From contig NW_019029002.1 of assembly GCF_002105155.1 (NCBI RefSeq), forward strand, positions 186,001 through 250,000: a DNA stretch of 64,000 nucleotides, written 5' to 3'. The position numbers and the translations under genes are program-made. Below the pieces are notes generated by a model, which searched no databases, had not been told where the DNA came from, and saw nothing but the letters and a program-made list of their open reading frames with translations. Origin of the DNA: Lobosporangium transversale (Eukaryota). How positions within the stretch are numbered: the stretch's first letter is position 1; each line of letters opens with the position of its first letter. Of the stretch, positions 4,569 to 53,505 are shown in pieces.

Positions 4569-6383
4569 CTATTCAAGTTCAATGGTGGCAGGAGGCTTCG
4601 ATGATACATCGTAAACAACACGGTTGATTCCTTCAACCTCATTGCAGATACGTGATGAGATCTTCTTGAGGACAGCAGTAGGGAAATCGAACCAATCTGC
4701 GGTCATAAAATCAGTGGTCTCAACAGCACGCAAGCAGATCATCTGTTCATAAGTACGCTTATCACCCTTGACTCCGACAGCCTTCACAGGGAGGAGAGCA
4801 GCGTATGCCTGAGCGATTTGGCGGTACAGGCCAGCCTTCTTGATCTCCTGAATATAAATATAATCTGCTTTGCGGGCAATAGCAACTTGCTCCTTAGTGA
4901 CCTCTCCAAGAATACGAATAGCAATGCCAGGGCCAGGGAAAGGATGGCGCCAAACAAGTTCATCGTCCATGCCCAACAATCTTCCGAGCTCACGGACTTC
5001 ATCCTTGAAAAGCTCCCTAAGAGGCTCAATAAGCTTAAGCTTCATGTTCTCCTTAAGACCACCGACGTTGTGATGAGTCTTGATAGTGGCGCTAGGACCC
5101 TTGAATGAAATAGACTCAATAACATCAGGATAAAGAGTGCCTTGAAGCAAGAACTCAATTGGTGGTGCGCCTGATGCAGCGTTAGCCTCATCGATGGCCC
5201 TAGCCTCTTCCTCAAAGACATCGATAAAAGTGTTACCAATGACCTTGCGCTTTTGCTCGGGATCAGTCTTTCCTGCAAGGTTGGCCAAGAACCGGTCGCT
5301 GGCATCAGCAATCTTGAGGTTGATGCCCATTTTATCAACAAGCATCTTCTTGGCATCCACACATTCATTGTGACGCATAACTCCATTGTCGACCAAAATT
5401 CCATGGAAACGATCTCCAATAGCCATGTGCATCAATTTGGCCGCGACTGACGAGTCGACACCTCCACTGACAGCTCCAATAACCTGCCCCTTTTCTCCAA
5501 CGATAGAGCGAATGCGCTCAATCTCCTTGCCAATGAACTCGGACATGGTCCACTTTTGTTCGGCCTTGCAGACCTTGATGACAAAGTTCTTGAGGATCTG
5601 CTTTCCGTCAATAGAATGGGTGACCTCGGGATGGAACTGAATGCCAAAGATAGGTTTCTCGTTATGGCGCACGGCGGCATAGGGGGCAGTATTGGTCGTG
5701 GCAATAACACGGAATCCATCAGCGATGGTGGTAACCTGATCACCATGGGACATCCAGACCTGAGACTCGTCACTCAGTTCCTCAAAGAGCATAGAGGATT
5801 GAGCGTCAGCTTCACCGGCAGGAAGGATGGTGAGAGTGGCAGGACCATACTCGCGGTGATCGCATGGGTCAACTTTGCCTCCAAAGTAGTTGGTCATTTC
5901 CTAATAAATAAATAAAAAAGTTGGTTTCAATAAAAAAAAATAAAATAAAAAAAAAAAAATTAATCTATGGTCAAGTATGCTTACCTGAAGACCGTAGCAA
6001 ATTCCAAGGACAGGGACACCAAGGTTGAAGACATCAGGATCAAGACGAGGGGCATCGTGATCATAAACAGAGAAAGGACTTCCGGACAGAATGACACCTA
6101 TACGAGTGATATTAATATTTCATTAAAAGCAATTCAATTGATGAATAGTAAGAACAAAGAAAATATAGAGTCCCTATTAGAAAGAGCAATATCGGCGGGG
6201 CATAGAGGCATTACCAGTGGGCTTCCAGGTCAACTCCGAGATCTTTTGGGTACAAGGGAGCAACTCGCAGTAGACACCGAATTCACGAATGCGTCGAGTG
6301 ATCAAGTGCGAGTACTGTGAACCAAAGTCCAGAATGAGAATGGTGTCAAACATCTCATGGACTTGAATGGTGGAGTCAGCCAT
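4569..6383 (-). CDS. GUA1: GMP synthase (glutamine-hydrolysing)
   Basis: [69 protein letters not shown]; 2 introns. Confidence 0.98.
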
Positions 6384-27454: not shown

Positions 27455-28003
27455 GGCGACTGTTCGATGCTTGTTGGTTTTCCAAATCTGCTTTGATTTC
27501 ACCATAGTTTAGCGGAATTGATTAGCATCCCCTGAATGGCTGCCATCCAAGGGACTAACTTCGAATGGACAGGATTTACTGTGTTGTTCAAAACAATAAA
27601 ACTTGACTGAAAGTCTGCTAATCCTCAAACTATGAGGCAAATAATGCCTCTGAACGCTTCAATAGGATTATGGCGAGTTTTTGGGGTGCAGAAAAGACAA
27701 GATTGTATCTTTTGAGCAATGAAGGATATAGGATTTGTTCCTTGGAGGCAAACTTTTTTGAAACCACGCTTGTTGCTAGTAAAAACACAAATGGTTCCCG
27801 TTTTCCGCATACTTTCAACGCTTCCACAATCCAAGGGCTGTGATGTAGCCATTAAATGTTACATGTTTGTCGAAGTATTGACACATCCCTTGCAAAAGTT
27901 CAGATGTATGCTAAGAATATTGTTTAAGGGACGTAGAGTAGTCAATAGCATGTGGCAGTATTCAGGTGTTTATACAGTATCAGATGGAGTCCGAACAGTC
28001 GCC
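27455..28003. repeat. E1 right long direct repeat (549 bp) with 12-bp TIRs
   Basis: Near-identical to 17530-18079. Confidence 0.95.
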
Positions 28004-29400
28004 AATAGGTTTGTGCTGTATGAGCGACAAGTTTGTGCTCGTTTTCTTCCAACACGTGCTGGAAATCGGAACATCACGCCCTTTCTCTTCAGGCTCAGAT
28101 CTCTAATAATGTCACCTTTCGCCTACCAAAAAGAGAACATGGACCATAATGAAAAAAGCACGATGAACTCAAGTCTTAGTGAACCAGAACAGCCTATTAA
28201 CCTTCCTGGAAACTCAGGTGATGTTAATGAGAACGATGATAATGAGGACGTGGAAATAGTTTCAGGAAGTTCAAGTCACCTATATGAATAACCAGAACAT
28301 TGACCTATGGAACTGTCTTCACAAGAACTGTCTCTAAAGATCTATCTCATTTGCTCAAAGCCAAAAGAGGAGAGGAAAATGCAACAGTAATGACGAATAG
28401 AGTACTGAGCCAAAAAAAAAAAAAAAAAAAAAAAGCTGTGTAGACAGTAACAACCAGTCATCTAAAATGAAGTTTAGTCAAAAAAAATAAAATACTGAAA
28501 TAGCTTCGCAGGGAAACATTTTCTTCAATCTCTTTCTTCCGTTTCCCAGATATAAATAGTTTGAGTAAGCTACCATGTCCTGACACTTAGACATCGAGCA
28601 AAAAGGTATCATTGTTGGGATGCACCTCGCAGGCATGAAGTATGTGGAAATCGCATTGCAATGCGGTGTAGCCCGAACCCCTGCCAATAATGTATCAGGG
28701 TGTATTGAGAAGGAGGTACAGGAACTTTGCTGTATATCCGACTTTCTGGCTCTTCTTAAAGACGCGTCTCCTTTCCTTTGTCTCTGTTCCTGCCCAGAAT
28801 CTTGAAGGGCACCTTGAGGGGTATCTTGGGGAGAGGAGGGCCTTGAGGAGCGGTTTGGGCGCAATTTTGGCCTCGTGAGTTATGGTTACGGTAGTATTTG
28901 TAGGTTTAAAATAAAATACTTGCTTCTGTCATCTAGTTTATTTTCTCAATGTACGTGACATATCCAAACGAAATAATGATCGCGACAATCTTGTTCAAGC
29001 CAAGAGCTGAAGTCCTCTTCGTTCACGTAAAAAACTCGAGGCAGATAGTCATACGGTTCTTTATGGAAGTCGTTTACAATAACATTGATCGTTTCATCAT
29101 CGAGAGTTGACTTAATCCATTTATAACCATGCACCTCCGAGCGCAAAATCTTAGTTGTTATTTCATTGGCCTTCGCAATGATCCTCTCGTCAAGTTCTGA
29201 ACTTTCTGAACCATCCGGCATGAGTGACCTTTCCCTGGTATCAAAATCTGCTGTAGGATGGATATCAATGGCCTCAACGAGAGCTGCAGGTGATTCACGC
29301 TCTATTTCTGAGTCGGAATCTGACATCTCACTCGAATAGTTATTACAGTCAACGTTCCATGAGTCCCAGTCAGAATTTGATTCCTCACCCCATAGTCATG
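28004..29400 (-). pseudogene. Degraded coding remnant, possibly from an older DNA transposon
   Basis: Broken minus-strand ORFs (28946-29326 acidic; 28478-28864) with no intact gene structure; family not identifiable by eye. Confidence 0.25.
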
Positions 29401-30233
29401 ATCAGAATCGAACTCTTCTAGGCCATCAACGCGTTCTATTTCGTTTACATTATCCAATAAGCTATTCCTAATAAGCTCTAAGCTCTACACAAAAAGCAAG
29501 GACAAGGAGAACCGAAGGACGAATAATAATTGTGCAAATGCTTATTATTGATAGAAAAGAAACAGAGCTTTGCGCTATAATCTTTGTTCAATGAAATGAT
29601 CTAACTGAATGCTGAAATAATACAAATGTTAATTTACATTCAGCATTCGACACGCATAGGCAACAATTTGCGAGATGACATGAAGGAAATCCATGCATAT
29701 CTTCTATTATAGTTTAGTATATCATATTGCAAATGCATCCATTGCAGCAACTATCGGATACGCCACACATATCCAATATGTCCAGTACAAGGCGCTGTAC
29801 AAGATCATTAACAAGGCCCCTCTCAGCAAGAGGAGGACGATCAAATATATGTTCACTCACACTTTCGCTTCAAAAAGCAATAAGCACAATCAACAACATC
29901 CCTCCCCTTCTCCCTTTTGATGAACGAATGCCTCTAATATAATGCTGATTTACTAGAGTTGTTGAAACAAAGAGTGACATCTGAACCCATTCTCCTTGAT
30001 TAACAAAAAAAAAGGCCCTTTTTCAGCTGTTGTTCCCTGACAAGACTAATAACCTTCTGCTTCAAAACCAGTTCCTGAACACGAGTCAAATCTGTTCATG
30101 TAAACAGTGCTTCCAATCCCCATACAATAATTTGAATCTTTTGTTTTGTTTACTATTCAAACTACATCCGTTTCCTTTTCCACTGTCCTTAATATAAATC
30201 CGATACATGGGCCGCTTGCTGCCACAGTCCCCT

Positions 30234-40267: not shown

Positions 40268-40948
40268 TTAAACAGTACTGATCCTCAGTGTAGGCAATCT
40301 CTCTTTAAGCATCGCTTTCAACTTTTGAATCTCCTCCAGGTGTTCTGCTCGTGCCAGGCAATGGCTGTAAAGGCCAAACTTCCGCAACGGCAGCATTAGT
40401 TGCTTACTATGTAGCAGATGGTCCACCAGAAGCTTAAACATCTCCAAATTAAAATGCATCAAGGAATCGGACGACGACATATGGAAAGGCATTACCTTTA
40501 GGATAAATAAATATCATAAGCCTTTCCAACATGCAACGTCCTTTCAGCAGTACCGTTTGCTCTCGGATTTCTGTAACACTTTCAATAACTGTGGCGAATT
40601 CACAAGAGCTTGGTGATCCATAGAGAAGCTCCAGCGACCTCAGTGTTCGAACCAGTGGTAGTTTGTCGTCAAATACTCTTTCAAGTAATGTACCAACTAT
40701 GAAGGTTCCGAGTGTAAGCTCTACAAGGTTGGGGCAGCAGACGAGAAGATTACTGAAATGGGACACTGCAGAGGGGTTACTGAAATTAATTCTGATCAAG
40801 TGAAGGCTTCGAAGGTTTGGTGCCATTGCAAAAGTCGAAATGTTGACACGGGAGAAAAGGTTCTCAAAATATCTGAGTTTCATCGATTGGATACGTGCGT
40901 TGCTAATGAGCTGAATAAGTGGATTGAACCGGCGACCGCGATTGATAA
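40268..40948 (-). pseudogene. 3' half of a Mortierellaceae-type LRR/RNI-like gene interrupted by E2
   Basis: INRGRRFNPLIQLISNARIQSM...LRSLHL...CPNLVELTL; continues the frame of 52045-53980 once E2 is removed. Confidence 0.8.
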
Positions 40949-41464
40949 GGCGGACATCCGAACCCGAGAAGTTGCCCAAAATACAAATAAATGTAAGATA
41001 TTCGAAGGTCCAAGCTACATCCGAAGGCTCTCAGAAAGTAAGTTGTTGCCATAACTAATCTTTTAAAATATATTCTGATGAATAGATGCGAGACTCGAGC
41101 AACAAATCTAATTAAAAACATTCTAACTATCACAAAGCTGAAGTCCTTTTGCCCGGTGATTTGATAGGCTGTTTAAAATTTATTTATTAAAGACATTGAC
41201 TACTTATCTGAGGATAGACTTCATGTGAGACACTGATGCGGCTGGTCAACCTATAACCAGACCAACAGACACCACTGCTGCCTTCGGATTATAATGCCAA
41301 ACACCCAATACATATACTACGGGTTCATTAAAACACACTGTTCGGCCTGCAGCCCACTAATATCAAACACTCCCAAATTGGGCATCTCTTTTTTAAAAAG
41401 TGCGATTAAATTCGAACAGGATTTATCTGGGTGGCCAAATCAGTTTCGAGCTCGGATGTCCGCC
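40949..41464. repeat. E2 left long direct repeat (516 bp) with 13-bp TIRs GGCGGACATCCGA...TCGGATGTCCGCC
   Basis: Only one substitution noticed versus 51529-52044. Confidence 0.97.
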
Positions 41465-41557
41465 TTGTGGTATCCCTTCTTTCGTTTTCGGTCCTCATGA
41501 TACCCGAATTCTCATATGATAACACATTCCTACGGAAGAAGGGATAGTTAAACTAGA

Positions 41558-42943
41558 TCAAAACTCGCGTTTGGAGTTCCAGTAGTCATCAATGGCGCGA
41601 GTCTGATTAAAGCTGCTGAGTGGCTCCCATGAATTGTCACATTTATTGTAGCCCTTCCATTGAACAAGATATTCTACTCCATCCCCTTCTCCTCGGTGCT
41701 CTATTATCTTTTTGATTTCATATGCAGTTTCTATATTGCTATCACCCATTTCATGATCGTTGTCAACATTTGAGGTAGTAGTGATACCGAGATTTAAAAA
41801 AGCATCCTGAAGCTGATACATGCTTCGAGCATCTTTGATTTCTACAACATAGCTTGGAGCAGTGGGAATTTGAGAAATGTTTGCCTCAGTGCCATCTGGA
41901 TAGTCGAAGTTCTCTTGCATCCAGAAGCTGTGATGTGGCTCTATAGTTATATTACGTAAGGCAACCATGCGTTTGATATTGAGAAGTAGGCAGCATAGCT
42001 TAAATTGCAGAGAGAAAATACTCTTTTCAGATACCCTCTTCACCACAGTATGACTGAATTTGGTGAAGATGGTCTGCATTTCTCCGAAATAACTTTCAAT
42101 CCTAGAACGAAAACTCCCAACCATTTCGTTATACTTTTTTTCCTGGTCTGTAAATGCTATCCCTCTTGTCTTGCGGACTGGACAGCAGAAGTTTGTTGAT
42201 TCCAGTTGGTCACTGTGTTCAATGATCCCATGTAGGAATTGCGAATAGCCTCCATCCAGGGTAATACAGTCAAGGCGATCGATTTTCTTCTCAATGGCCA
42301 TTTTGGAGAGCATGGTTCCATCACTAAAATCACGGCATTCGGCGGGTTGTGATACAAACACAATCATGCTATTCATATCACAGCATACTTGTGTGCGGAA
42401 CCCAGACTTTTTGAGTTTGTATGAATACAAACTGGCTTTATCTGCATTTAGGTATGCCACTCGACTATCATGGCCATCGATGTGAAGTGTAATATGTTTG
42501 AACTCCTCTGGGTTGATGGATCGTGATGTGAGCAGACGCAAGGTAATACTTGAGGACATGTTAGCAAGACAGGACGTTAACTTTGAATCCAGGGTATGTG
42601 TTTCCCTGCCAAAAAAATCTTTATACACATCATGGAATGAACTCTTGGGTAAAAATACACTCATCTCAGAGGTCGAAACCCCTTTCAATAACATGTACAG
42701 TATTAGGATGCCTTTCTCAACATTTCTGTAAGGGCCAGGATAATTCCTCGTGCCAAAAATCACTGTCAAGAAAAAGAACACTGGAACGATGCCCAGACGG
42801 TGCTGCACAAAGTCTTTGGCCTTCTCTATATTTTCCACACTCTTGATCTCAGTACGGTGGAATTTGCTCCGCTTCAAAATGGGCCAGTCCTGGTGCAGGA
42901 ATCCCCATTGAGTTGATATCAATCTGTCAAACTCTGCATCCAT
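41558..42943 (-). CDS. PIF/Harbinger-type DDE transposase with C-terminal chromodomain
   Basis: LHIDGHD, ITLDGGY, FRSRIESYFGE; YEIKKIIEHR...EYLVQWKGYNKCDNSWEP chromodomain; intact 461 aa. Confidence 0.9.
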   Translation of the reverse strand: MDAEFDRLISTQWGFLHQDWPILKRSKFHRTEIKSVENIEKAKDFVQHRLGIVPVFFFLTVIFGTRNYPGPYRNVEKGILILYMLLKGVSTSEMSVFLPKSSFHDVYKDFFGRETHTLDSKLTSCLANMSSSITLRLLTSRSINPEEFKHITLHIDGHDSRVAYLNADKASLYSYKLKKSGFRTQVCCDMNSMIVFVSQPAECRDFSDGTMLSKMAIEKKIDRLDCITLDGGYSQFLHGIIEHSDQLESTNFCCPVRKTRGIAFTDQEKKYNEMVGSFRSRIESYFGEMQTIFTKFSHTVVKRVSEKSIFSLQFKLCCLLLNIKRMVALRNITIEPHHSFWMQENFDYPDGTEANISQIPTAPSYVVEIKDARSMYQLQDAFLNLGITTTSNVDNDHEMGDSNIETAYEIKKIIEHRGEGDGVEYLVQWKGYNKCDNSWEPLSSFNQTRAIDDYWNSKREF

Positions 42944-43008
42944 TGTATAACATCACTAGCTATTATAGATATATATTCATTTAAAGATTATATTTTGGGA
43001 TTTGCTCT

Positions 43009-43090
43009 GCGGACCAGGGGCCAACTTGCAAGCTCTCTCTTAGAAAAGAATTTGTAAGTTGGCCCCGGATAAACTGGTCGGGTAAATATG
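43009..43090 (+). repeat. E2 hairpin site 1 (orientation A, 'flip' core)
   Basis: GCGGACCA-GGGGCCAACTT-GCAAGCTCTCTCTTAGAAAAGAATTTGT-AAGTTGGCCCC-GGATAAACT...GGGTAAATATG. Confidence 0.95.
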
Positions 43091-43386
43091 TTAAAAAATA
43101 AAAAGATAGCCCTCGGGAGGGAGCAGGCGAGTGGCAGACGAGAGATACGTTATACTCGACTTTTTAATAAAAGCGGAAATAGGCACATTTTTAAATCAAA
43201 ATCTTGTGTTCTTTATTTTTAAAAAGTGCATAACATATAATGCAGTCAGCGCGAGGTCATTGAGTGTTGGTGTTGTAGATGCGAGTGATATATTCGATCA
43301 TCTCCTCCTCAGTCTTCTTTTCCTACCGAAGGTCCTATCCACTAAGCGTGGGGCTGGAGGATTGCAGAATGCTGTGGGCCTTCAGG

Positions 43387-44170
43387 CTAATCGCTTTCTG
43401 GGCTGGGAGCAACAGCAGGAGTGGTGGCAGTGGCTGGACTGGCAGCGGCAGCTGGGCCGTCCCTAGTATAGGTATGGAAAACCTTTGTGATATACCCAAT
43501 CATCTCAGCTTCAGTGTTATTCTCGCTTCGAAGTACAAAGCTACGGTTATTAAGCTTGATCGGGGCATCTTTGTCGCGCCTCATATGCTGAATGACATTA
43601 TCTCCTCTTGGCGACGGATCAAATCGCAACTCCTTAACCTCAATAGCATCAAGCTCAGGGTTGTCGGTAATAAATTGCTTGACTCTACCGTCGATAAGCT
43701 TCCGTTGTTGAGCAAAGATGCGAAATCCTCCAACTGGCAATGGTTGAGGCTTCTGGAACTTTAAAACAACAAAGATCTCCTGGTCTTTAGATGGACGCGG
43801 TAAAACTCGATTCTGGTTGGCTTCTTGGAGTGCGCGCTCGCAGTTGACAAAGGCATCTTTAACGTTCTGCAGTTCGAGCTTAGTCTCAGCGTGGCTAGAT
43901 AACTCCTTATCAAGCTCCGCCTTGGTCCCTTGGCGCGCATACTCACTGTTGGCAAGAGCGAGTTTAGAGTTTTTCAACTCCAGTTCTTTCTCTTCCAAAT
44001 TGGATAGAGCTGTGTCAAGATCCGATTGAGTGGATTCCAGGTCATCCTTGGCATCCATAAGGTCTAGCTGCGTATTTCGGAGTTCAAGTGAGGGCTGCAA
44101 CCTTCTCTTGCAGTCTTTCAATACTGGACTCTTGTGCTGGTCTGGCGGGTCTGGTGGTGGTGGTGGTCAT
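43387..44170 (-). CDS. Coiled-coil + DUF3627-like protein; apparent frameshift near 44090
   Basis: ATG 44170 gives MTTTTTRPARPAQESSIERLQEKVAAL, which shifts into LELRNTQLDL...; homolog of 23058-23621. Confidence 0.65.
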
Positions 44171-44506
44171 AGTTCAAAATTGTTTTTTGGGTGAAGTAAT
44201 TAAGAAAGTTTTGAGTGGCATAATTTCAAAAGGCCACGGTTTAAATTGCAAATTTCGACAGAAATTGGTTGAGCTGGCATAATTTAATTGGTTCAGGTAA
44301 GGAAAATTGGGAAGGAAAAGAGGTGATTTGGCAGAATTCCATTGGACGAATTTTTTTTTTAAAAAAAGAAAAGGAAGGAAAAGGAAGCAAACTCACGTCA
44401 CAGGGTGAAGGATTTTATTTTAATGACTTTAAAAAGCACTATCTCGTTTTGGCGAACCTGAGCCACAGCCGGAAATTTTTTTTTCGGTGCATTTGAACAG
44501 CTTCAT

Positions 44507-44600
44507 GCGCACGGGCCAGGCTTGGCGGTGGCCAACTTACAAATTCTTTTCTAAGAGAGAGCTTGCAAGTTGGCCACCGGCTAAACTACGGGTAAATATG
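44507..44600 (+). repeat. E2 hairpin site 2 (orientation A, 'flop' core)
   Basis: GCGCACGG...CGGTGGCCAACTT-ACAAATTCTTTTCTAAGAGAGAGCTTGC-AAGTTGGCCACCG-GCTAAACTACGGGTAAATATG. Confidence 0.95.
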
Positions 44601-44847
44601 GTGACTGGATCGCACGGCCACCACTACCACCACTTTTTTGCATTTTTAAAAAAAAAAAAAAAAATTTATTACTGAGATGTCGATTGTGTTACCATTCGCC
44701 TCCAGAAATAAATGCTCTTGAAGACCAGCTCAAATTCCATATAAATACACCCAACTTGTGGAGGACCTTTTCTGCTCTATTTAATTCTATTTTCTAAATA
44801 CGACAATTAAAAAGGTGACCAACATTTGCATCATTGCGTGGTGGATT

Positions 44848-45016
44848 GGACGTATCTGGCACGATCTGGACTAATAATTAGCGAAGCCACTTCTTAGCGA
44901 CAGCCGTGGACAGCACGTGACAATCCTGTCGGGGTATGGACATATCTGGCACAATCTGGACTAACAGTTGGCAAGCCACCTTTTAGCGACAGTTGTGGAC
45001 AGCATGCGACAATCCC
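44848..45016. repeat. Imperfect 90-bp tandem duplication upstream of the E2 cargo gene
   Basis: GGAC.TATCTGGCAC.ATCTGGACTAA...AAGCCAC...TTAGCGACAG..GTGGACAGCA.G.GACAATCC starting at 44848 and 44938. Confidence 0.85.
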
Positions 45017-45353
45017 GGGTAGCAAAATTTCTTTCACTACGCCACAAAGAAACAAATGCTGATGTCTGGCAAGAAATTTGCGACCGTAAATTTATAAACA
45101 TTTAAGCTGTCACAATAAAACTCTCATGGAATTTTTTTTGGAAAAATGCATTTGAAGTATGTGGGACCTAATCAATATGTCTTTTTTTGAAATTTTAGAT
45201 ATAACAGTCACAAATGTGACATGATGCTAAAAATAGATGGTTTTTTTTTGAAAAAAGAAAAATTCTCACACTTCTTCTCACACTTCTTCTCACACTTCTA
45301 CAACTTTTCAATCACACACTTTATTCCCAAGTTTTCCTTTCGCCCTGAAAATA

Positions 45354-47208
45354 ATGATTTCAAAAGCAGAATTTCTCCGCAACACCAAGGCAACTGAGCC
45401 CTATCACATTATTGAACCATTCGTACGATTATTTGGAATTAAGGATACAGAAGAATTTTTAAGTGTTATTTCCGCCGCCTTGACGGAGCTCCTTGATGTA
45501 AATTACGACAATAATGACCAGGAACTATATCAACAATGCAAACGCTACGCTCGATGGAAACAAGTTGTTGAGGTATAGAGGCCCGAGATAGTATTAAATA
45601 ATTCATATTTGAACGCCTCTAATGTATGACCAAGCAGACCGTAACACGATCTCTTATTGTTATTTATAGTCAAAGACATTCCGCACGTCTTGTACCAAAT
45701 TTTTCGCTAAGAAGACTGCCGCCGCGACGTCTACCCCTGCTACCACTGCCAACACATTTCGTCGCTCGGACCGAATTAAGGAGATCCAGTCACCAGCAGC
45801 GCCTGTGAAATCCCTAACTGAGGAGGAAATACGGATTGATGGATTATTTTTAAAAAAAGACACGGAAACGATCGGACAAAGGATCAAACAGAGAGCTCTG
45901 GACCTAGAAGCTACTGTAACATCACCTGAGTTCAAAGATGTACACGAGCGCCGGATCTTTTCTCTTGGAGCCTCGTCAATTCTGGATCTAGTAGATATGT
46001 CAAACGAGAGTCAGCTTTTCGATGTATTTCCCAGTAAGAGTGATCAGGATGAGTTAATGACGATGTTTGCTCATCTAAGCATGAAGAGATCCATTAATGC
46101 ACCTGAACCAACTGAGTTGCTGACACATTGGGATATCTGCAGTGCGATTGCTTCTAAAGATGGGCTTGCTGAAGCACGATCCTACCTATATCGAGAGATG
46201 GGAGCCTGTCTGCCGAGCTTTGCGGAGAATCTCAAGCCTCTCCTGATAATGATTGACGCCCTCCTATGTTATCCCAAGATATTTGCACAAGAGTATGACG
46301 TAACGGAGCAGGACTTAATGAATGTTCTTTGGAGCCCGATGCTGTCTTCCTTATTTCTCCGGCAGCAGAGTGAAACTGGGATTAGGATAAAAGGAGGAGA
46401 TTCGACACAGGTAGCGTCAAACATCGAGAAAAGAGAATTCTACGATGACGGACACGCTATTGCCTTCAAAATAGATTCTCGGATCATAATAGATGTTTCC
46501 CGAAAGGGTGAAATCGACATTGCAGCCGTCGAGGTTGCTCCCAATTGCCAAGAGACCAAAATTTTTTCAGATGGGGCCAAAGTCCTCCGAGAGGCGAAGG
46601 AGATAGTAAATGGCTTGACCAAAATTTTTCCGGATGACGAAAACTTTCTCAAGAATACGATTGGTTACGGCGTTCAGATAGGGAATCTGTCTGGGTCGAT
46701 ATTTTCTCTGCATCTAGTTGCTCCGAAGCTATATGTAGCATGGCCAGAACATACATTCTGCCTTCCTGATTCACGAGGATCCTTGGATCGATTCAAGGAA
46801 GTCATTATAGCACTATCTTGGTTTCAACAGGCCGTCCAAGGCACCGCCATGAATATCAAATCAGCTCTTTCAGTGCAGAAAACAGTCGGAGCACTCTATG
46901 GCCACGGCTACAGCCATAAACCACTGGGTCAAAAGCAGTGGACTAACCCAACCTGGTTTGAACCATCAAAACCATCTAAGGCTCGGCCAATCCAGGAATT
47001 AATGAGGGTGGTGCACCCCATTCAGACTGCAATTAGTCCTCAATCAAGCGAAGACCTAAATAAGCAAACCCATGCGAATGCTACATATGACAGTAATGGA
47101 TGGGCCATTGTAGTGGCCAAAGATGGCCGACCAATGTACTTTAACAAGCATACACTGCAGTATCTTGAGGAACGTGGTGGCAAAAAAGCCAAAATGGACG
47201 TAGCTTAA
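45354..47208 (+). CDS. E2 cargo: putative PD-(D/E)XK/REase-fold protein with WW-like C-terminus (intron 45573-45669)
   Basis: Exon 1 splices in frame into ORF 45805-47208; EQDL...LWSPML, FKIDSRII...EIDIAAVEVA...KIFSDGAKVLREAK; tail NGWAIVVAKDGRPMYFNKHT. Confidence 0.6.
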
Positions 47209-48017
47209 TATATCAGGTAATCTATACTCTTGCTTTTCATACATGCATCTGACGTTATTCTACTTGAATTCAGTCTTGTTTTTTTTTTAAAAAAAAAAAA
47301 AAACAAAGGGTATTTTCTCGCTTCGCATTTGTATTTTCTTCTGATATTCAGATAGCATAGTGAGACCTGCACCCAATCTTATGTAGAAGTATTCCTGTTT
47401 TACGAAATAAATCAGCCATTCACAAAGACTTAGCATATCTGGTGTCCTCGAGACTCACGAGGACGAAGTGCGGGGAAGCAGCTGTGGTCGAAAGCCATTG
47501 TCTTTTTTTTAAAAAAAAATGTAACCCGAGACTTTTCGAATTAATGGATGCCTGGGCTCCAACTGCTGGGCCGCTCCCAAAGCTATGTAAGACTCGCTTC
47601 GGCCTCTTCCACTTTTTTTTCAGCCAAGGCTCGCGAGAGCGCATATATCCAATAAGCGGAAGAAATTATTTGACAAGGGTCCCAATCAGTCAGCTCAACT
47701 TTGATATTGGATCCCGGATGTCCAAAATGGCCCACGATAATTCCAATAAAATAACAAGATATTTTCAAAAATCCGGAAGATTACGTCTTTGAAAATGCTG
47801 TGCTGTTGGTCATATTATATTTGCATCAGTTCACAGCCCATAATCACCCCGGATCATACTAGGGTCGACACAGACCCGGGGCAGTTTGTTCAGTTGCAAA
47901 AGGATTAGACTGGGATTATAAATTAAAGTTATTTGTATTAATAATAATAAACTTGGGGATTTCTTTTTTTTTAAAATGCAAAAAAGTGGTGATAGTGGAG
48001 GCCTTGTGATCCAGTCC

Positions 48018-48115
48018 CATATTTAGCCGGCCGAAGGACCTGACAGTTTAGCCGGGGCCAACTTGCAAGCTCTCTCTTAGAAAGAAATTTACAAGTTAGC
48101 CCCTGGTCCGTGCGC
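48018..48115 (-). repeat. E2 hairpin site 3 (orientation B, 'flop' core)
   Basis: AGTTTAGCC-GGGGCCAACTT-GCAAGCTCTCTCTTAG...-AAGTTAGCCCC-TGGTCCGTGCGC. Confidence 0.95.
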
Positions 48116-48192
48116 AGGGAATGATTTCAAAAATTAAATAACTGAATATAAATTTTTTATATGTATATACAACAAGACGCACATTATAAACA

Positions 48193-51100
48193 ATGTACAA
48201 ATTTGGAGCCACATTCTACTCGCAAAAGCAACAGGGCCTTAGGCCACAGGCAGCATCTTTCAAGAGAGCTGATGAGGCTCAGAACACATTTCTTGTTGCT
48301 CATCAATTCAAGCTCAACTCGGAGGGCAAACCGCTTTGGGCATTTGGTAGCTACAAAAATCTGCAGAGCTTCCTGGAATGCACAAAGTATGTACCAGCCA
48401 CTGAATGCTTCTTCTTTGAGCAAATCCGCGATGGGACATCTTGCTGGGAATACTACGACCTGGAATGGGATCCCTCAAAGACAGAGGACACTGAGGAGAC
48501 AATCTTCTCAGATTTTTTGCAGCAAAGGAATGCCTTCTGTCTAGAATATGAGGTCTTAGCTTCTGAGTGCCGCATCTTGAGTGCATCAAATGCTGAAAAA
48601 GGGTCAATGCATATCATCTTATCAGGGTCTGGATTCAAGTTCAGAGACAACACATGCCATATGAAAAACTTTATGGACGCCTTCCATTTGATGGTTAAAG
48701 AACATCCACTTTCAAAACACATTGATTGGATTGTCTACACAAAGAATCGAAACTTCAGATGCATCAATAGTGCTAAGCGCCATGATCCAACAAGGGTTCT
48801 CCGACCTGCAATTTGGCACAATGCCTCCTGCTCTGCACCTGAGAGTGAGTTTTTTGTCACCAATGTGAGTGCTGATGCCACAGATATTGTGCATTGTCAT
48901 CTTGCAGCAAGCAAAGGTGCTAGAAATAAAGTACCTCAAGTACAGGGGTCTGAGCAGGATCAAGACCAAGAGCAAAACGAAAAGTTGCCACCTAGTGTGA
49001 TTAAAGCAATAAATACCATGCTTGCAAATATGGATTGCTTGTCACAGTTCAAGATTGGCGAATCTCATAACAATCGTATGCACCTGAAGCGTATAAGATC
49101 AGGGCACTGTCAAATATGTAATAGGATCCACGACAATGACAATGCATATGTGACAATTGCAGATCAGGGGAAAGTGTACCTCCACTGCTATAGGGTGGAT
49201 GCAAATTCCAGGCGTGATGGACTTCAAATTGGCAAACTGGATTTTCCAAGCATGATCGCACTTCGAGTACATAGGGCACAGACCAATCAAGAAGAAACAA
49301 TCACTGCGAACAAACATTGCTCACTTCGCCATTTGGAGTATAAGAAAGTTATGAAGCTGCTGCAAAACCAGAAACAGAGTCTTGTGATCCGCAGTGAACC
49401 AGACACTGCTAAGACCTCTTTTGTTGAAAGTTTTATGGATAGGCACAAGAACTTAGCATACATTTTTGTGTCTCCTCGACAATCACTAGCACGCAATCTA
49501 GAGAAGCGCCTTGAGCTAAGGAGCTATCTTAGTTTCCCTGGGCCTGTCTCTGGGAAGCGCGTGATCATTCAAGCTGAGTCCTTATATAAGCTTGACCTTG
49601 AATACTATAGCATGGATGTGGTCCTGGTCTTGGATGAGGTCTGCTCTATTTTTGAACAGATGACAAGTGTGGGCACCATGAAAGGCCGCCATGGCGCAAA
49701 CAATCAAGTCCTAGAAGAACTTATGCGCAAGTCCAAGAGGGTAATTGCCTTGGATGCTGATGTGACAGACCGAGAGGCTGAAATCATCAAGTCTGTGAGG
49801 AGCGATGTTTTTGTCATTCACAACACTTTCAAGCCACAGCAAGGGCATCAAGTTGTGTGCTTCCAGCATAAAGAAGTCTTAGAGTCTCATGTTATTGATC
49901 TTGTAAAATCTGGTCATAAGGTCTGGATATCAACCACACACTCAGCTGAAGATGCCGAGACCCTGCATAAGACACTGCAGAAAATGGGCAGAAGGGGTGT
50001 CTGTATCACAAAGAACACATCTGATGCTGATAAGATTGGCATCTCACAAAATATCAACAAAATTGTGCTGGACCTTGACTATTTCATTCACACTCCGACC
50101 ATCACAGTTGGTATAGACTGCAATGTGAAGCATTTCAACTATGTCGTGGGGTTCTTTGAAGCACAAACTGGCGTCATTGTTGAAACATGTAGACAGATGT
50201 TGCGACGACCGCGAAATGTCAGCACTCAAAAATATCTCATCTATATCAAAAATGTAACTAGCAATCTACCCACCACTTTCAGAGAGATTGTTGAGTATAT
50301 GGAAAGCCAGGAAGTGCGACTGAATGGATGTGAATTAGACATAAGTGGATTTCCTTATATATCTCAAATGGGTCAGCCTCCATCCGTTGACTTGAAAGTG
50401 CTATATGCATTAATATACATGCAGACACTCATCAAGAAGCACTTGACAAAGAATGACTTTTATCAACGCTTTATTGACCAAATGGTCCAAGTTGGCTGCA
50501 GTGTACAGGAAGCTGACTCGCATCTGTGTAAAAACGATGAATATACTGTGGAACTAAACCAAAACAAGAAAGAGCTGCTACATATCAAGTACACAGGAAT
50601 TTCGAAAGCTAGGGTCCTTGATACTGAGGAGTTTTCTCGGTTAGATGTACAAAACAGTCGAACACAGGAGGAACAATATGCTGTGACGAAGTATAAGCTA
50701 ATGGAGACCTACAGTGTACAAGATGCATCTCTTTTGACTCCTGATTGGGTTGAGAAATATGACAAACCTCGAGAGAAGAAGATCTATAAGAATCTTGCTA
50801 TGTTGAAAGAGGACCCCACACTTCAAATCTTGCGACAAGAAGATAGATTGGGTCTCAAATGTGGCAAAGCTACAGTTGGGGTTCACACACTGGGAAATTC
50901 GAGATACCTCAGGTTTAAGTATGCAAAAGACATTCTTGACAGCTGTGGATTTGATTCGCCATTTGATGACAGAGAGATGTCAGCTGAGGAGCTCAAGAGA
51001 AAAATAGATCTTCGTTGGTCAGATTTGGTCAAGGACGGAAGTATGAGAGACATCTGCACTCAGCTGGGGATTAGATGCCCCTCACACAACAATTGGGACT

Positions 51101-51249
51101 TCAAAAATAAGAAAAGCTTTTTGAATAGTGTGTTGAACGAGATTTGGGGGATCCACATAGTCAGAACTGATCACAAGTCGCATCATTATTATATCAAGTA
51201 TATGACAGAGGTTGGTAAACACAAAGATGACTTTTTCATGACACAGTAG
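48193..51249 (+). CDS. AEP primase-polymerase + Zn finger + UL9-like SF2 helicase fusion (1018 aa, intronless)
   Basis: EYYDLEW, GSMHII, HIDWIVYTKNRNFRCINSAK; CQICNRIHDNDN...LHCYR; SEPDTAKTS (degenerate Walker A), LVLDEV, HTPTITVGID, RQMLRRPR. Confidence 0.88.
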   Translation: MYKFGATFYSQKQQGLRPQAASFKRADEAQNTFLVAHQFKLNSEGKPLWAFGSYKNLQSFLECTKYVPATECFFFEQIRDGTSCWEYYDLEWDPSKTEDTEETIFSDFLQQRNAFCLEYEVLASECRILSASNAEKGSMHIILSGSGFKFRDNTCHMKNFMDAFHLMVKEHPLSKHIDWIVYTKNRNFRCINSAKRHDPTRVLRPAIWHNASCSAPESEFFVTNVSADATDIVHCHLAASKGARNKVPQVQGSEQDQDQEQNEKLPPSVIKAINTMLANMDCLSQFKIGESHNNRMHLKRIRSGHCQICNRIHDNDNAYVTIADQGKVYLHCYRVDANSRRDGLQIGKLDFPSMIALRVHRAQTNQEETITANKHCSLRHLEYKKVMKLLQNQKQSLVIRSEPDTAKTSFVESFMDRHKNLAYIFVSPRQSLARNLEKRLELRSYLSFPGPVSGKRVIIQAESLYKLDLEYYSMDVVLVLDEVCSIFEQMTSVGTMKGRHGANNQVLEELMRKSKRVIALDADVTDREAEIIKSVRSDVFVIHNTFKPQQGHQVVCFQHKEVLESHVIDLVKSGHKVWISTTHSAEDAETLHKTLQKMGRRGVCITKNTSDADKIGISQNINKIVLDLDYFIHTPTITVGIDCNVKHFNYVVGFFEAQTGVIVETCRQMLRRPRNVSTQKYLIYIKNVTSNLPTTFREIVEYMESQEVRLNGCELDISGFPYISQMGQPPSVDLKVLYALIYMQTLIKKHLTKNDFYQRFIDQMVQVGCSVQEADSHLCKNDEYTVELNQNKKELLHIKYTGISKARVLDTEEFSRLDVQNSRTQEEQYAVTKYKLMETYSVQDASLLTPDWVEKYDKPREKKIYKNLAMLKEDPTLQILRQEDRLGLKCGKATVGVHTLGNSRYLRFKYAKDILDSCGFDSPFDDREMSAEELKRKIDLRWSDLVKDGSMRDICTQLGIRCPSHNNWDFKNKKSFLNSVLNEIWGIHIVRTDHKSHHYYIKYMTEVGKHKDDFFMTQ

Positions 51250-51423
51250 GCTTGTATATAATGATTTTTAAAAAAGTGGCGTCCTTCAGTCAAGATTTAG
51301 AAGATGGATTCAAGTATAGTTCATGTAATATTACCATCTGGGTAACCAATCAGAGCAGGCTAATAGGCTAATAGGCTAATATATTATTTGAGTTACTACT
51401 GAGGACTATATAACCGGGAGTAA

Positions 51424-51494
51424 CATTTAGCCGGGGCCAACTTACAAATTCTTTTCTAAGAGAGAGCTTGCAAGTTGGCCCCTGGTGCGTGCGC
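51424..51494 (-). repeat. E2 hairpin site 4 (orientation B, 'flip' core)
   Basis: CATTTAGCC-GGGGCCAACTT-ACAAATTCTTTTCTAAGAGAGAGCTTGC-AAGTTGGCCCC-TGGTGCGTGCGC, 34 bp before the right direct repeat. Confidence 0.95.
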
Positions 51495-51528
51495 AGGGCT
51501 TGACTCACCCTCCAAAAGAAATTGGGAA

Positions 51529-52044
51529 GGCGGACATCCGAACCCGAGAAGTTGCCCAAAATACAAATAAATGTAAGATATTCGAAGGTCCAAGCTACAT
51601 CCGAAGGCTCTCAGAAAGTAAGTTGTTGCCATAACTAATCTTTTAAAATATATTCTGATGAATAGATGCGAGACTCGAGCAACAAATCTAATTAAAAACA
51701 TTCTAACTATCACAAAGCTGAAGTCCTTTTGCCCGGTGATTTGATAGGCTGTTTAAAATTTATTTATTAAAGACATTGACTACTTATCTGAGGATAGACT
51801 TCATGTGAGACACTGATGCGGCTGGTCAACCTATAACCAGACCAACAGACACCACTGCTGCCTTCGGATTATAATGCCAAACACCCAATACATATACTAC
51901 GGGTTCATTAAAACACACTGTTCGGCCTGCAGCTCACTAATATCAAACACTCCCAAATTGGGCATCTCTTTTTTAAAAAGTGCGATTAAATTCGAACAGG
52001 ATTTATCTGGGTGGCCAAATCAGTTTCGAGCTCGGATGTCCGCC
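51529..52044. repeat. E2 right long direct repeat (516 bp) with 13-bp TIRs
   Basis: Near-identical to 40949-41464; followed by TAA. Confidence 0.97.
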
Positions 52045-53505
52045 TAATGTCAGGTGTTGGTCGTCGAAGATACTCTCCGTCCACGCAGAGGCGGACAAGG
52101 TTTGATGTAGTAGCAGCCGTTGCAAATTCTCAAAAGTCCTCCATTGTTGCGTCCCACCCGAATTTGAAAGTCAACTCCTGGATACCGCGCGCTTGGACCA
52201 TGACTTCATAAAACTCCTTTGCTTGTACTGACGATCTGAGACTAGTGTCGATGCTACCATGCTGCTCATCATATTCGCCGCCGTTAGCTGCAACGATCTC
52301 CTTGAACCGCTATACTACTGATTCCCTGTAGCTCTCTCGATAGTGGTCGAAACATACCCATTTGACATGGCCCTCAAGAGTGACAATGCGATATAGGTTA
52401 CCGAGGGTACGGCTCTGGTTGTGGGCCAGCAAAAACGATTGGAGCCGCCGTAGGTCTGCCCCTTCAAGCACTTCTGATTTCCCGATCATTGCCTGGCCCG
52501 CAATGTTATTAATACCACCATCGGCTTCCTGATGATTGTTTTGGAAGTAATTGATTGATTCATCCACAAGTAATACGATCCCGTGCCCTGACACCTTCAC
52601 TACACCTCTCGCTACATCAATCCAGTCTGAGATGTCGAGTTGAGCCAATGGAGGCAAGACAAAGCCAGCAGCAAGGACTCCGTATTTAAGTATCTGTAGC
52701 ATTGTCAATACATAGGATCCGTACTTCTCAAAGAACTCTGCGGGTCGGTCGATATTATACCCTTCATGCTTTGCCAGATGTATATGGTGCGGGATATTGC
52801 TCTTGGATGGCTTCGTGTGACCGCCACACTTACGCAGGAAGAACAACCGAAACTGGTATGCAAATGGTTTCCCTAGCTTATCAAGGGGTCCTGTAAGCTT
52901 TGGGAGGACGATGAACAGTCTGGGGATTGGGTATTCGTGCAATTCGTAGGTCTGAGTGATGGGAGCTTGCACTCGGCTTTGAATGATGGCTAGCCTGTCC
53001 AGAACCTGTTTCTGCATCTGCAACATCTCACTCTGTTTATTCTGCAAAAGCTGCAGTTCCTCCCTATTCTTCTTTATCTCTTGTTGCATCTGCTGTCGAA
53101 GGGCTTTGATGAGCTCGGTGTCTTCTCGCTGCTGACTAAAATGTACTGCCATGGTTGCTTTGAGCCATAACATCGGTTTGATTCATTTGGATCACCTCCG
53201 TTGATTTAGAGTGAGAGCTGTCGATGCAGTTATTCTGAAAGGATGGCGGTTGGACATTAGTGTCCATAGCACTGGGAAGAAGGGTCAGTTTGGGTCCCTC
53301 CAAAAGCTTGTCTGAGATGGGAAGGTCCCCAATGTGCTTTGACATTGCACTCGTTAGTGCTTCGGCGGAGGATGCTTTTAAGAACGCATGAAAAGGTGAA
53401 AGGGGTACCTCAGAGGTGGCGTTGATACGAGCTGGCGCGCTGACCACGACTTGCAAGGTAGTCCCTGGTCGATATTGGACCCTTAAAGGAACAAGACTAA
53501 AAGGA

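Follow-up and report, generated by a model that had tools for sequence, protein, structure and literature searches.

The stretch of DNA analysed here (the window, 64,000 nucleotides of Lobosporangium transversale) contains an 11.1-kb element, E2 (40949-52044), with the order repeat-[transposase, P, DUF3627, P, cargo, P, primase-helicase, P]-repeat, in which P is a palindrome. The left long terminal direct repeat (516 bp, 40949-41464) has its own TIRs, GGCGGACATCCGA..TCGGATGTCCGCC, and the right one (51529-52044) is identical to it at 515 of 516 positions. The same TAA borders both outer ends (40946-40948 and 52045-52047) as target-site duplication (TSD). E2 interrupts a host LRR-type gene, whose 3' part (40449-40945, minus strand) and 5' part (52048-53173) are in phase after discounting E2 and one TAA. 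E2 is thus a clean, TAA-duplicating insertion into a host gene. A reading of the 516-550-bp direct repeats of this and a second element as a long TSD, that is, as duplicated host DNA, was rejected: TIRs bound each repeat, and the host gene stays in phase with a duplication of TAA alone.

Within E2, the transposase gene (41558-42943, minus strand) encodes a DDE_Tnp_4, PHIS/IS5-like protein with an intact D156/D231/E283-type triad and a C-terminal chromodomain. It is followed by palindrome P1 (43017-43066), by a gene for a coiled-coil and DUF3627 protein of a giant-virus-type family (43387-44121, minus strand; TM 0.77 to the DUF3627/KilA-N cluster), which has homologues in the second element, E1, and at the related locus L005, and by P2 (44528-44577). 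The cargo ORF (45805-47208, plus strand) could be assigned to none of the families in Pfam, PHROGs and NCBIfam, nor to any PDB sequence, and is unrelated to the last cargo ORF of E1. P3 (48054-48103) lies 90 bp upstream of the ATG of the primase-helicase gene (48193-51249, plus strand), and P4 (51433-51482) follows that gene. In one sequencing run, whose RNA-like type is a guess (n = 1), contigs fall on the genes for the DUF3627 protein and the cargo, the latter spliced, and none on the transposase or primase-helicase genes, which is not evidence of silence; none of the listed runs with matches is recorded as RNA. Contig depth is slightly higher inside E2 than in the flanks, depth not being copy number. 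The ORFs scanned in the elements include no PolB, rve integrase, capsid or packaging ATPase, no Pfam match for a Myb/SANT second ORF and no match to a His-Me nuclease. Relatives of the transposase, the Rep-like protein described below and the primase-helicase were absent from viral_contigs in pattern-seeded scans, in which a blank is weak. An endogenous virus or Polinton was rejected as an explanation, as the ORFs scanned lack the hallmark genes and these weak scans of viral_contigs gave no relatives.

The primase-helicase gene is a single intronless frame from ATG to TAG (1018 aa, 0 internal stops), as the sequence-only reading had described it. AEP motifs I (DxE/D), II (SxH) and III (hD) are all present, as YYDLE (aa 87-91), GSMH (aa 137-140) and HID (aa 176-178), together with R189 and K195; D89, D178, R189 and K195 are invariant in an alignment of 85 sequences. 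The C-x2-C-x3-H...C pattern of a Zn finger was likewise seen again, as C307-x2-C310-x3-H314...C333, with the UL52-type Zn finger family PF03121 below cut-off (E 0.012). The helicase part matches PF02399 (E 6e-14). [quoted passage not shown] Both folds on which the sequence-only reading depended were therefore recovered, by profile search, Foldseek and structure alignment, and its placing of the gene inside a transposon is borne out by the repeats, the TAA duplication and the neighbouring transposase. By sequence and model, the protein is a PrimPol-type AEP with a putative Zn finger and a UL9-like SF2 helicase, of predicted enzymatic activity.

SF2 helicase motifs had been claimed for both copies of the gene in the window. 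They are present in both, with two qualifications: the E1 gene is frameshifted, and the Walker A of E2, SEPDTAKT, is non-canonical, keeping the invariant K407 and missing the glycines. SEPDTAKT is common to E2 and the homologue P0002; the E1 copy has SETGTGKT. The CyRepA1 NCBIfam model matches the helicase and C-terminal region of the E2 protein over 490 aa (E 8e-58), with the AEP N-terminus outside the model; at a cut-off of 200 bits, the E1 copy scores above (219.7) and the E2 copy just below (196.7). Between E1 and E2, pN is 0.26-0.50 and pS saturated, which indicates that the gene is under constraint. The AEP-UL9 fusion itself is already known, from full-length giant-virus homologues and 13,442 clusters; the new part is its setting in a fungal repeat-bounded transposon.

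E1 (17530-28003) is an older element with the same plan. Its left repeat (550 bp, 17530-18079; TIRs GGCGACTGTTCG..CGAACAGTCGCC) differs from the right one (27455-28003) by 12 mismatches and 1 gap. Between them lie a DDE transposase with chromodomain (18212-19600, plus strand; 50% identical to that of E2), P1 (19651-19699), the AEP-UL9 gene (19771-22963, minus strand), a coiled-coil and DUF3627-like gene that clusters with its E2 counterpart (23058-23621, minus strand), P2 (23981-24029), and cargo (24424-27244, plus strand) in which P3 (24961-25008) separates a Crinkler N-terminal domain (24424-24879) from downstream ORF pieces, followed by P4 (27364-27412). As read from the assembled sequence, the AEP-UL9 gene keeps all motifs despite a frameshift near its 5' end, because of which the 1016-aa frame listed for it, with GTG as start, is spurious at its N-terminus. 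The E1 flanks, also read from the assembled sequence, show no matching TSD (TAC versus AAT), so that a 3-bp TWA duplication is found in one of the two elements, E2, where host-gene phase backs it. Identity of the terminal repeats tracks decay, from 515/516 in intact, TSD-flanked E2 to 537/549 in frameshifted E1 without a TSD. The interiors of the E1 and E2 repeats are unrelated.

Four oriented palindromes of 50 bp separate the genes of E2, and their orientation is + + - - in both elements. In folding, seven of the eight beat all of 200 shuffles and P3 beats 195 of 200; compensatory changes were read by eye. Each palindrome has two different conserved flanks. Two of the four E2 spacers, those of P1 and P4, are inverted relative to the flanks, and longer inverted arms flank the cargo between P2 and P3, an arm of ~80 bp after P2 being inverted with 47960-48050. 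The palindromes occur at 8 of 8 sites in E1 and E2, twice in L005 and not in L001, a relative with a Rep-like gene, which indicates that they follow the replication module and not the transposase.

Replication-type genes are found at 24 of 50 loci with this transposase: Rep_trans-like genes at 21, UL9-like helicases at 2 and a D5-type primase-helicase at 1. Where at least 1 kb of flank is available, the fraction is 21/35; the other 14 of these 35 well-flanked loci lack any recognised module, which counts against the circular form proposed below. The transposases of L003 (UL9-like) and L009 (D5-type) are 89% identical, and that of E1 is closer to L001 (Rep_trans-like, 69%) than to E2 (50%). These identities indicate that close transposase relatives swap replication modules; the transposase tree is a quick version within the family only, with 9 short rows and 2 duplicates left out. 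L003 and L031 show just the helicase/C-terminal part and no homologous palindrome, a further point against that proposal. The TIR-bearing repeat is seen only in E1, E2 and L001/L002, several Rep-like loci having long inverted ends instead, and among 20 flanking stretches scanned for TIRs, L001 alone had a GGCG-type repeat unit.

L001 and L002 are circularly permuted contigs of 3.46-3.47 kb with one ~420-bp repeat unit (TIR GGCGACTGT, as in E1), a transposase and a Rep-like gene. They are one sequence, which weakens their weight for a circle, and a tandem array, or a loop made by the assembler, can also yield a closed contig. No free circle of E2 was observed, which also speaks against the circular form. 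The Rep-like partner, whose profile was built from 10 of the 21 loci, has no Pfam match (10 members), and the A4 profile found nothing below E 0.5 among PDB sequences. In Foldseek, RepD/RepDE are best (4cwe, E 2.1e-3; 4cwc, E 5e-3), with none below 1e-3; in VIA, 4cij (Z 6.3) ranks below TBP-fold rows (7.2-7.5); in Atlas, values are 0.90-0.91 with a low recognition score. From sequence and models, we moderately favour a Rep_trans rolling-circle initiator, with a tentative RepD/RepSTK1-like fold, as its likely identity.

Relatives have other proteins that likely copy DNA next to this transposase, so the element likely multiplies as a small plasmid-like circle before it re-inserts into the chromosome. 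We accordingly read the primase-helicase, at a probability of roughly 0.55, as likely to initiate replication of a composite-like DDE transposon in a circular, plasmid-like state. In this scheme, a one-repeat circle would be set free by recombination between the terminal repeats. The primase-helicase would attach to the oriented palindromes, melt them and lay down primers, most of the elongation probably falling to host polymerases. The transposase would then use the TIRs of the one remaining repeat to join the circle to a TAA target, perhaps steered by its chromodomain reading histone marks, and replication would duplicate the repeat at the fusion in a cointegrate-like manner. We propose that this duplication resets both repeats to identity at each insertion; the cointegrate step remains a proposal, because known PHIS transposases are cut-and-paste. 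The non-canonical Walker A of E2 and the missing TSD of E1 count against the replicon reading. The earlier suggestion that the protein could recognise the hairpin, unwind it, prime and possibly polymerise, making the element partly self-synthesising without PolB, is supported in part, namely as to a replication role, which the CyRepA1 match, the other replication-type genes beside the transposase and the closed one-repeat contig favour. A stand-alone substitute for PolB is disfavoured: interchange with a likely rolling-circle initiator suggests an initiator or primer role on host polymerases.

Alternatively, the protein might be an accessory of cut-and-paste or excision, IEE-like, filling gaps or joining ends, with the composite moving via its outermost TIRs. 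The TAA duplication at the outer ends fits this equally well, IEE of E. coli is described as an AEP and helicase protein promoting excision of a DDE insertion sequence (PMC9943667), and helicase-bearing DNA transposons, KolobokH, are known in fungi (PMC9587614). We nevertheless consider it unlikely, as this role is taken in relatives by a D5-type primase-helicase or a likely rolling-circle initiator, as the protein is similar to the origin initiators UL9 and CyRepA1, and as cut-and-paste alone leaves the near-identical terminal repeats unexplained. Less likely still is passive cargo from a giant virus, with no role in the element cycle, like the DUF3627, Crinkler and other cargo genes. The nearest full-length folds are indeed giant-virus proteins, the element does hold host-like cargo, and modules are shuffled between E1 and E2; but three unrelated replication-type proteins recur beside the transposase at those 24 of 50 loci, and the gene is intact, intronless, constrained between E1 and E2 and accompanied by conserved palindromes.

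Replication might also proceed through hairpin-ended linear forms or in place, by rolling-hairpin or local re-replication, with the palindromes as former ends and no repeat-containing circle. Flip/flop hairpin ends have their spacer in both orientations, as the E2 palindromes do, and the longer inverted arms around the P2-P3 cargo would suit such ends. The two different conserved flanks of each palindrome are unlike a head-to-head end junction, though, no resolvase or telomere-resolvase gene was recognised, and palindromes of this kind are missing from the closed L001 contig; we regard this route as improbable, more so than passive cargo. Least credible, and very doubtful, is a chance arrangement in which an unrelated element, bounded by palindromes, happens to lie between copies of an independent MITE. 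Each repeat does have MITE-like TIRs and E1 lacks a TSD, but the layout occurs twice with unrelated repeat interiors, plus a single unit in L001, TAA is common to the outer ends of E2 only, and the reading phase of the host gene continues from one side of the entire unit to the other.

Extending the replicon reading, we tentatively suggest, at somewhat less than even odds, that these elements make up a class, so far undescribed, of integrative plasmids in the eukaryotic nucleus, present in Mucoromycota. The integration unit would consist of a Harbinger-type transposase with chromodomain and a single TIR-bearing repeat, freely exchanged AEP-UL9, D5-type or Rep_trans replicons would copy the circle, cargo would lie between palindromes, and re-entry would be cointegrate-like. 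The literature searched contained no description of such an element. To our knowledge, DDE transposons of eukaryotes are viewed as moving by cut-and-paste and as having no replication machinery themselves, and those that do replicate themselves, the Polintons, depend on PolB and an rve integrase. If the suggestion is true, the pairing of a Harbinger-type transposase with plasmid-type initiators that can replace one another would constitute a new route of copy-number increase and gene shuttling in early-diverging fungi, and would give the orphan 'origin-binding protein' genes of their genomes a testable origin. The circle model of KolobokP would become directly testable, and an autonomous replicon could serve genetic work in Mortierellaceae.

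Among known systems, Polintons/Mavericks and pipolins are integrating elements with their own replication proteins; unlike them, E1 and E2 have no PolB, retroviral-type integrase/recombinase or capsid. In IS26 translocatable units and TnGBS, one-repeat circles re-integrate as direct-repeat-bounded units; as far as we know, bacterial systems of this type have no chromodomain and carry the transposase inside the repeat. The palindromic sites of E1 and E2 with their A+T-rich centre resemble HSV-1 oriS. HSV-1 UL9 is an SF2 helicase whose motif II is DEV, as in the E2 protein, but lacks the primase domain that the latter has. The giant-virus AEP-UL9 'replication origin-binding proteins' (Marseillevirus, Bodo saltans virus, Catovirus) share this arrangement of AEP, helicase and C-terminus over their full length (Foldseek E 1e-46 to 1e-36; 17-19% identity), whereas genes for a capsid, a packaging ATPase or PolB are absent from the ORFs scanned in the 11-kb E2. 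CyRepA1, described as a plasmid replication initiator of cyanobacteria with autonomous replication activity (PMC10899382), belongs to bacterial plasmids, and the AEP N-terminus of E2 extends beyond its model. IEE is similar in fusing AEP and helicase and acting with a DDE element, but is a stand-alone bacterial gene outside the element, acting in trans and with a helicase of another family (PMC9943667). The PIF/Harbinger group of the PHIS superfamily has a DDE_Tnp_4 transposase and short TIRs starting with G, as here, and a 3-bp TWA TSD, as in E2; the passages on it do not mention chromo, helicase or direct repeat (PMC4482050). E1 and E2 differ from this group in having no recognised Myb/SANT partner, a fused chromodomain, composite ends and a replication module. 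KolobokP consists of an internal region between ~450-660-bp terminal direct repeats with short TIRs, and a circle of one repeat plus the internal region has been proposed for it (PMC9587614). Such long terminal direct repeats with their own TIRs are shared by E1 and E2. KolobokP, however, is an animal element with a Kolobok transposase, a TTAA TSD and a His-Me nuclease (PMC9587614), whereas E1 and E2 combine a DDE_Tnp_4/IS5-like transposase and chromodomain, replication-type genes and internal palindromes in fungi, with a TAA TSD in E2.

The primase-helicase, which joins a PrimPol-type AEP, a putative Zn finger and a UL9-like SF2 helicase, is a real feature of the window, encoded on the forward strand at 48193-51249 by one uninterrupted frame of 1018 aa. 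Its sequence reads as AEP motifs I–III, a C-x2-C-x3-H...C cluster and SF2 motifs, and D89, D178, R189, K195, K407, D481, E482 and D521 do not vary in an alignment of 85 sequences. The protein matches Pfam Herpes_ori_bp (E 6e-14). Searched against solved structures, its profile retrieved HSV UL9 (E 2.6e-31) and human PrimPol (E 6.4e-9), followed by poxvirus D5-type primases (E 0.003). UL9 and PrimPol were also the top Foldseek matches of its AlphaFold model (pLDDT 91.6) and ranked first in VIA (UL9, Z 27, rmsd 14.6; PrimPol, Z 24, rmsd 2.4), so that the profile and both structure comparisons recovered the AEP and UL9-like SF2 folds proposed in the sequence-only reading. That reading had also assigned AEP, Zn-cluster and SF2 motifs to both copies of the protein; the motifs are present, but the Walker A of the copy in transposon E2 is a non-canonical SEPDTAKT (the same in P0002, a homologue), and the copy in transposon E1 (19771-22963) is frameshifted close to its start. 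Both copies are under selective constraint (pN 0.26-0.50, pS saturated).

The AEP-helicase fusion is already known and not new. With an E-value limit of 0.001, a profile search yielded 13,442 clusters, many of them full length. The closest named sequences, like those of the adjoining transposase, come from Mortierellaceae, which makes a fungus of this family the most likely source of the window. The best predicted viral folds belong to giant-virus origin-binding/helicase proteins, aligned across at least 1,000 columns. The helicase half matches CyRepA1, a cyanobacterial plasmid initiator family, at 196.7 bits in the E2 copy and 219.7 bits in the E1 copy (cut-off 200); PMC10899382 attributes autonomous replication activity to this family.

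E2 (40949-52044; 11,096 bp) has direct repeats at both ends and contains, besides the primase-helicase, a DDE_Tnp_4 transposase with a chromodomain (also matching IS5, weakly), a DUF3627 protein and a cargo ORF. The terminal repeats are 516 bp long, differ by one base and carry 13-bp TIRs on each. TAA is found on either side of the element, and the LRR-type host gene that it interrupts keeps its phase across the unit after discounting one TAA; the entire element is therefore a single clean insertion. E2 and its flanks are covered by contigs that break at the repeats; these come from three DNA runs, each of a different study, and two of the runs may be the window's own source. In an RNA-like run, the cargo gene is spliced, with GT..AG joints at 45570-45668 and 47211-47411, and a contig also lies on the DUF3627 gene. 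A loose contig end at 49734 in sequencing run X1 resembles the E1 helicase (21300-21335; 2 of 30 bases different), a weak hint of a third genomic copy.

The older E1 (17530-28003) follows the same plan, with repeat interiors unrelated to those of E2. Its left and right repeats differ by 12 mismatches and one gap, and its cargo is Crinkler-like (24424-27244; PF20147, E 2e-21). No TSD was found at its outer ends; pieces resembling other transposon debris in the right flank (28004-29500) may account for this. Elsewhere, the window contains a diverged tandem gene duplication (57939-58350/61895-62306 and 56710-57044/60561-60894) and a 260-bp MITE-like inverted repeat (61478-61738), neither related to the primase-helicase finding.

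Each element contains four imperfect palindromes of ~50 bp (P1-P4), sited at module borders, with G+C-rich arms and an A+T-rich centre. In folding comparisons, seven of the eight beat all 200 shuffles and the remaining one beat 195 of 200. The conserved flanks on their two sides differ, and their orientation is + + - - in either element. Relative to the flanks, the E2 spacers are inverted at P1 and P4 and not at P2 and P3, from which we infer that in the cell the arms undergo recombination or template switching. A palindrome profile (E under 0.02) was run on the window and 50 loci with a related transposase; its only matches were the eight palindromes of the window and a further two in L005, with none in L001, whose transposase is a close relative of that of E1. 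The palindromes therefore travel with the primase-helicase/DUF3627 part and not with the transposase, which lends indirect support to the origin role that the sequence-only reading proposed. P3 of E1 sits between a Crinkler N-terminal domain and downstream ORF pieces, and the palindromes might provide a means of reshuffling the N- and C-terminal parts of Crinkler proteins.

The loci were collected with the transposase alignment (48 from metagenomes, then 2 further), and 24 of the 50 contain a replication-type gene: a UL9-like helicase or its C-terminal part in L003 and L031, a D5-type primase/SF3 helicase in L009, and a ~560-aa Rep-like protein in 21, 10 of which built the profile, with L001/L002 and L019/L027 as near-duplicate pairs. 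Where at least 1 kb of flank is available (35 loci), 21 have a module and 14 have none. The Rep-like protein, known from Mortierellaceae and Apophysomyces, is likely a Rep_trans member, judging from its model (pLDDT 72): RepD/RepDE rolling-circle initiators are the top Foldseek matches (E 2e-3 and 5e-3), a TBP-like sheet is predicted, with RepSTK1 at Z 6.3 in VIA, and Atlas places the protein with phage "replication protein" clusters. Modules are swapped among closely related transposases, as different modules accompany those of L003 and L009 (89% identical) and of E1 and L001 (69%), and on a quick transposase tree the UL9-like label changes at least three times, on starred branches.

Individual loci show further features. 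Six Rep-like loci (L006, L012, L018, L021, L022 and L023) are without a chromodomain; their ends are inverted over 51-142 bp or more and enclose small GAGGG..CCC hairpins shared among these loci. A zinc-ribbon and coiled-coil third gene, which may correspond to the DUF3627 gene, recurs in Rep-like elements (L018:3701-4306, L021:4098-4796, L023:3954-4652, L033:3231-3833). In L009, a separate set of imperfect palindromes (TGGATA..TATCCA) recurs at the borders of genes (325-427, 1401-1440, 2627-2665, 5154-5223), and part of the D5 gene is present a second time in inverted orientation. Iteron-like 77-bp tandem repeats immediately follow the UL9-like gene of L031 (4937-5176). L016 (a 6-kb contig with ends overlapping by 130 bp), L025 and L041 form one transposase clade, whose partner is a Cys/His-rich, lysine-rich protein of no assigned family. 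L049 and L050, filed in bacterial MAGs, encode this eukaryote-type transposase, and binning contamination is likely.

L001 and L002 are one circularly permuted sequence of 3.46-3.47 kb, which contains the transposase, the Rep-like gene and one ~420-bp repeat unit, whose TIR starts GGCGACTGT, as in E1. A circle with one repeat is expected to look like this, though a tandem array or an assembly loop would yield an identical contig.

From the observed element architecture, clean insertion, folds, module exchange and constraint on both primase-helicase copies, we favor, at a probability of about 0.55, a model in which a circle with one repeat would be released from the element and the primase-helicase would initiate replication at the palindromes. 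Host enzymes would perform most of the elongation, because a rolling-circle initiator can apparently serve in the same role, and the transposase would re-integrate the circle and duplicate the repeat, which would account for repeat identity tracking the decay of each copy. Alternatively, the primase-helicase may be an accessory akin to IEE, an AEP-helicase protein that helps a bacterial IS (PMC9943667); we consider this unlikely, and slightly more so that the protein is passive cargo. Replication in place, or via hairpin-ended linear forms, is improbable, and a chance pair of MITEs is a very improbable source of the direct repeats.

The element is best read as a composite-like, self-replicating DNA transposon, a variant within a kind already known; the idea of a new class of fungal nuclear plasmids that integrate is a tentative proposal, short of an even chance. 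The protein family is known and the element is apparently undescribed: the parts of PMC12730594, PMC5751038 and PMC13483431 consulted describe no element of this type, and the literature searched, itself available in part, did not mention any PHIS transposon that has terminal direct repeats or carries replication genes of its own, with a Repbase entry possible. Further comparators are Polintons, pipolins, IS26 units and TnGBS among integrating elements and, for the palindromes, the oriS layout and flip/flop ends. The PIF/Harbinger elements of PHIS (PMC4482050) agree with E2 in transposase and TSD but have a Myb/SANT partner, which was not recognised among the element ORFs scanned here. KolobokP (PMC9587614) has the same end structure as E1 and E2 and differs in transposase, TSD and partner.
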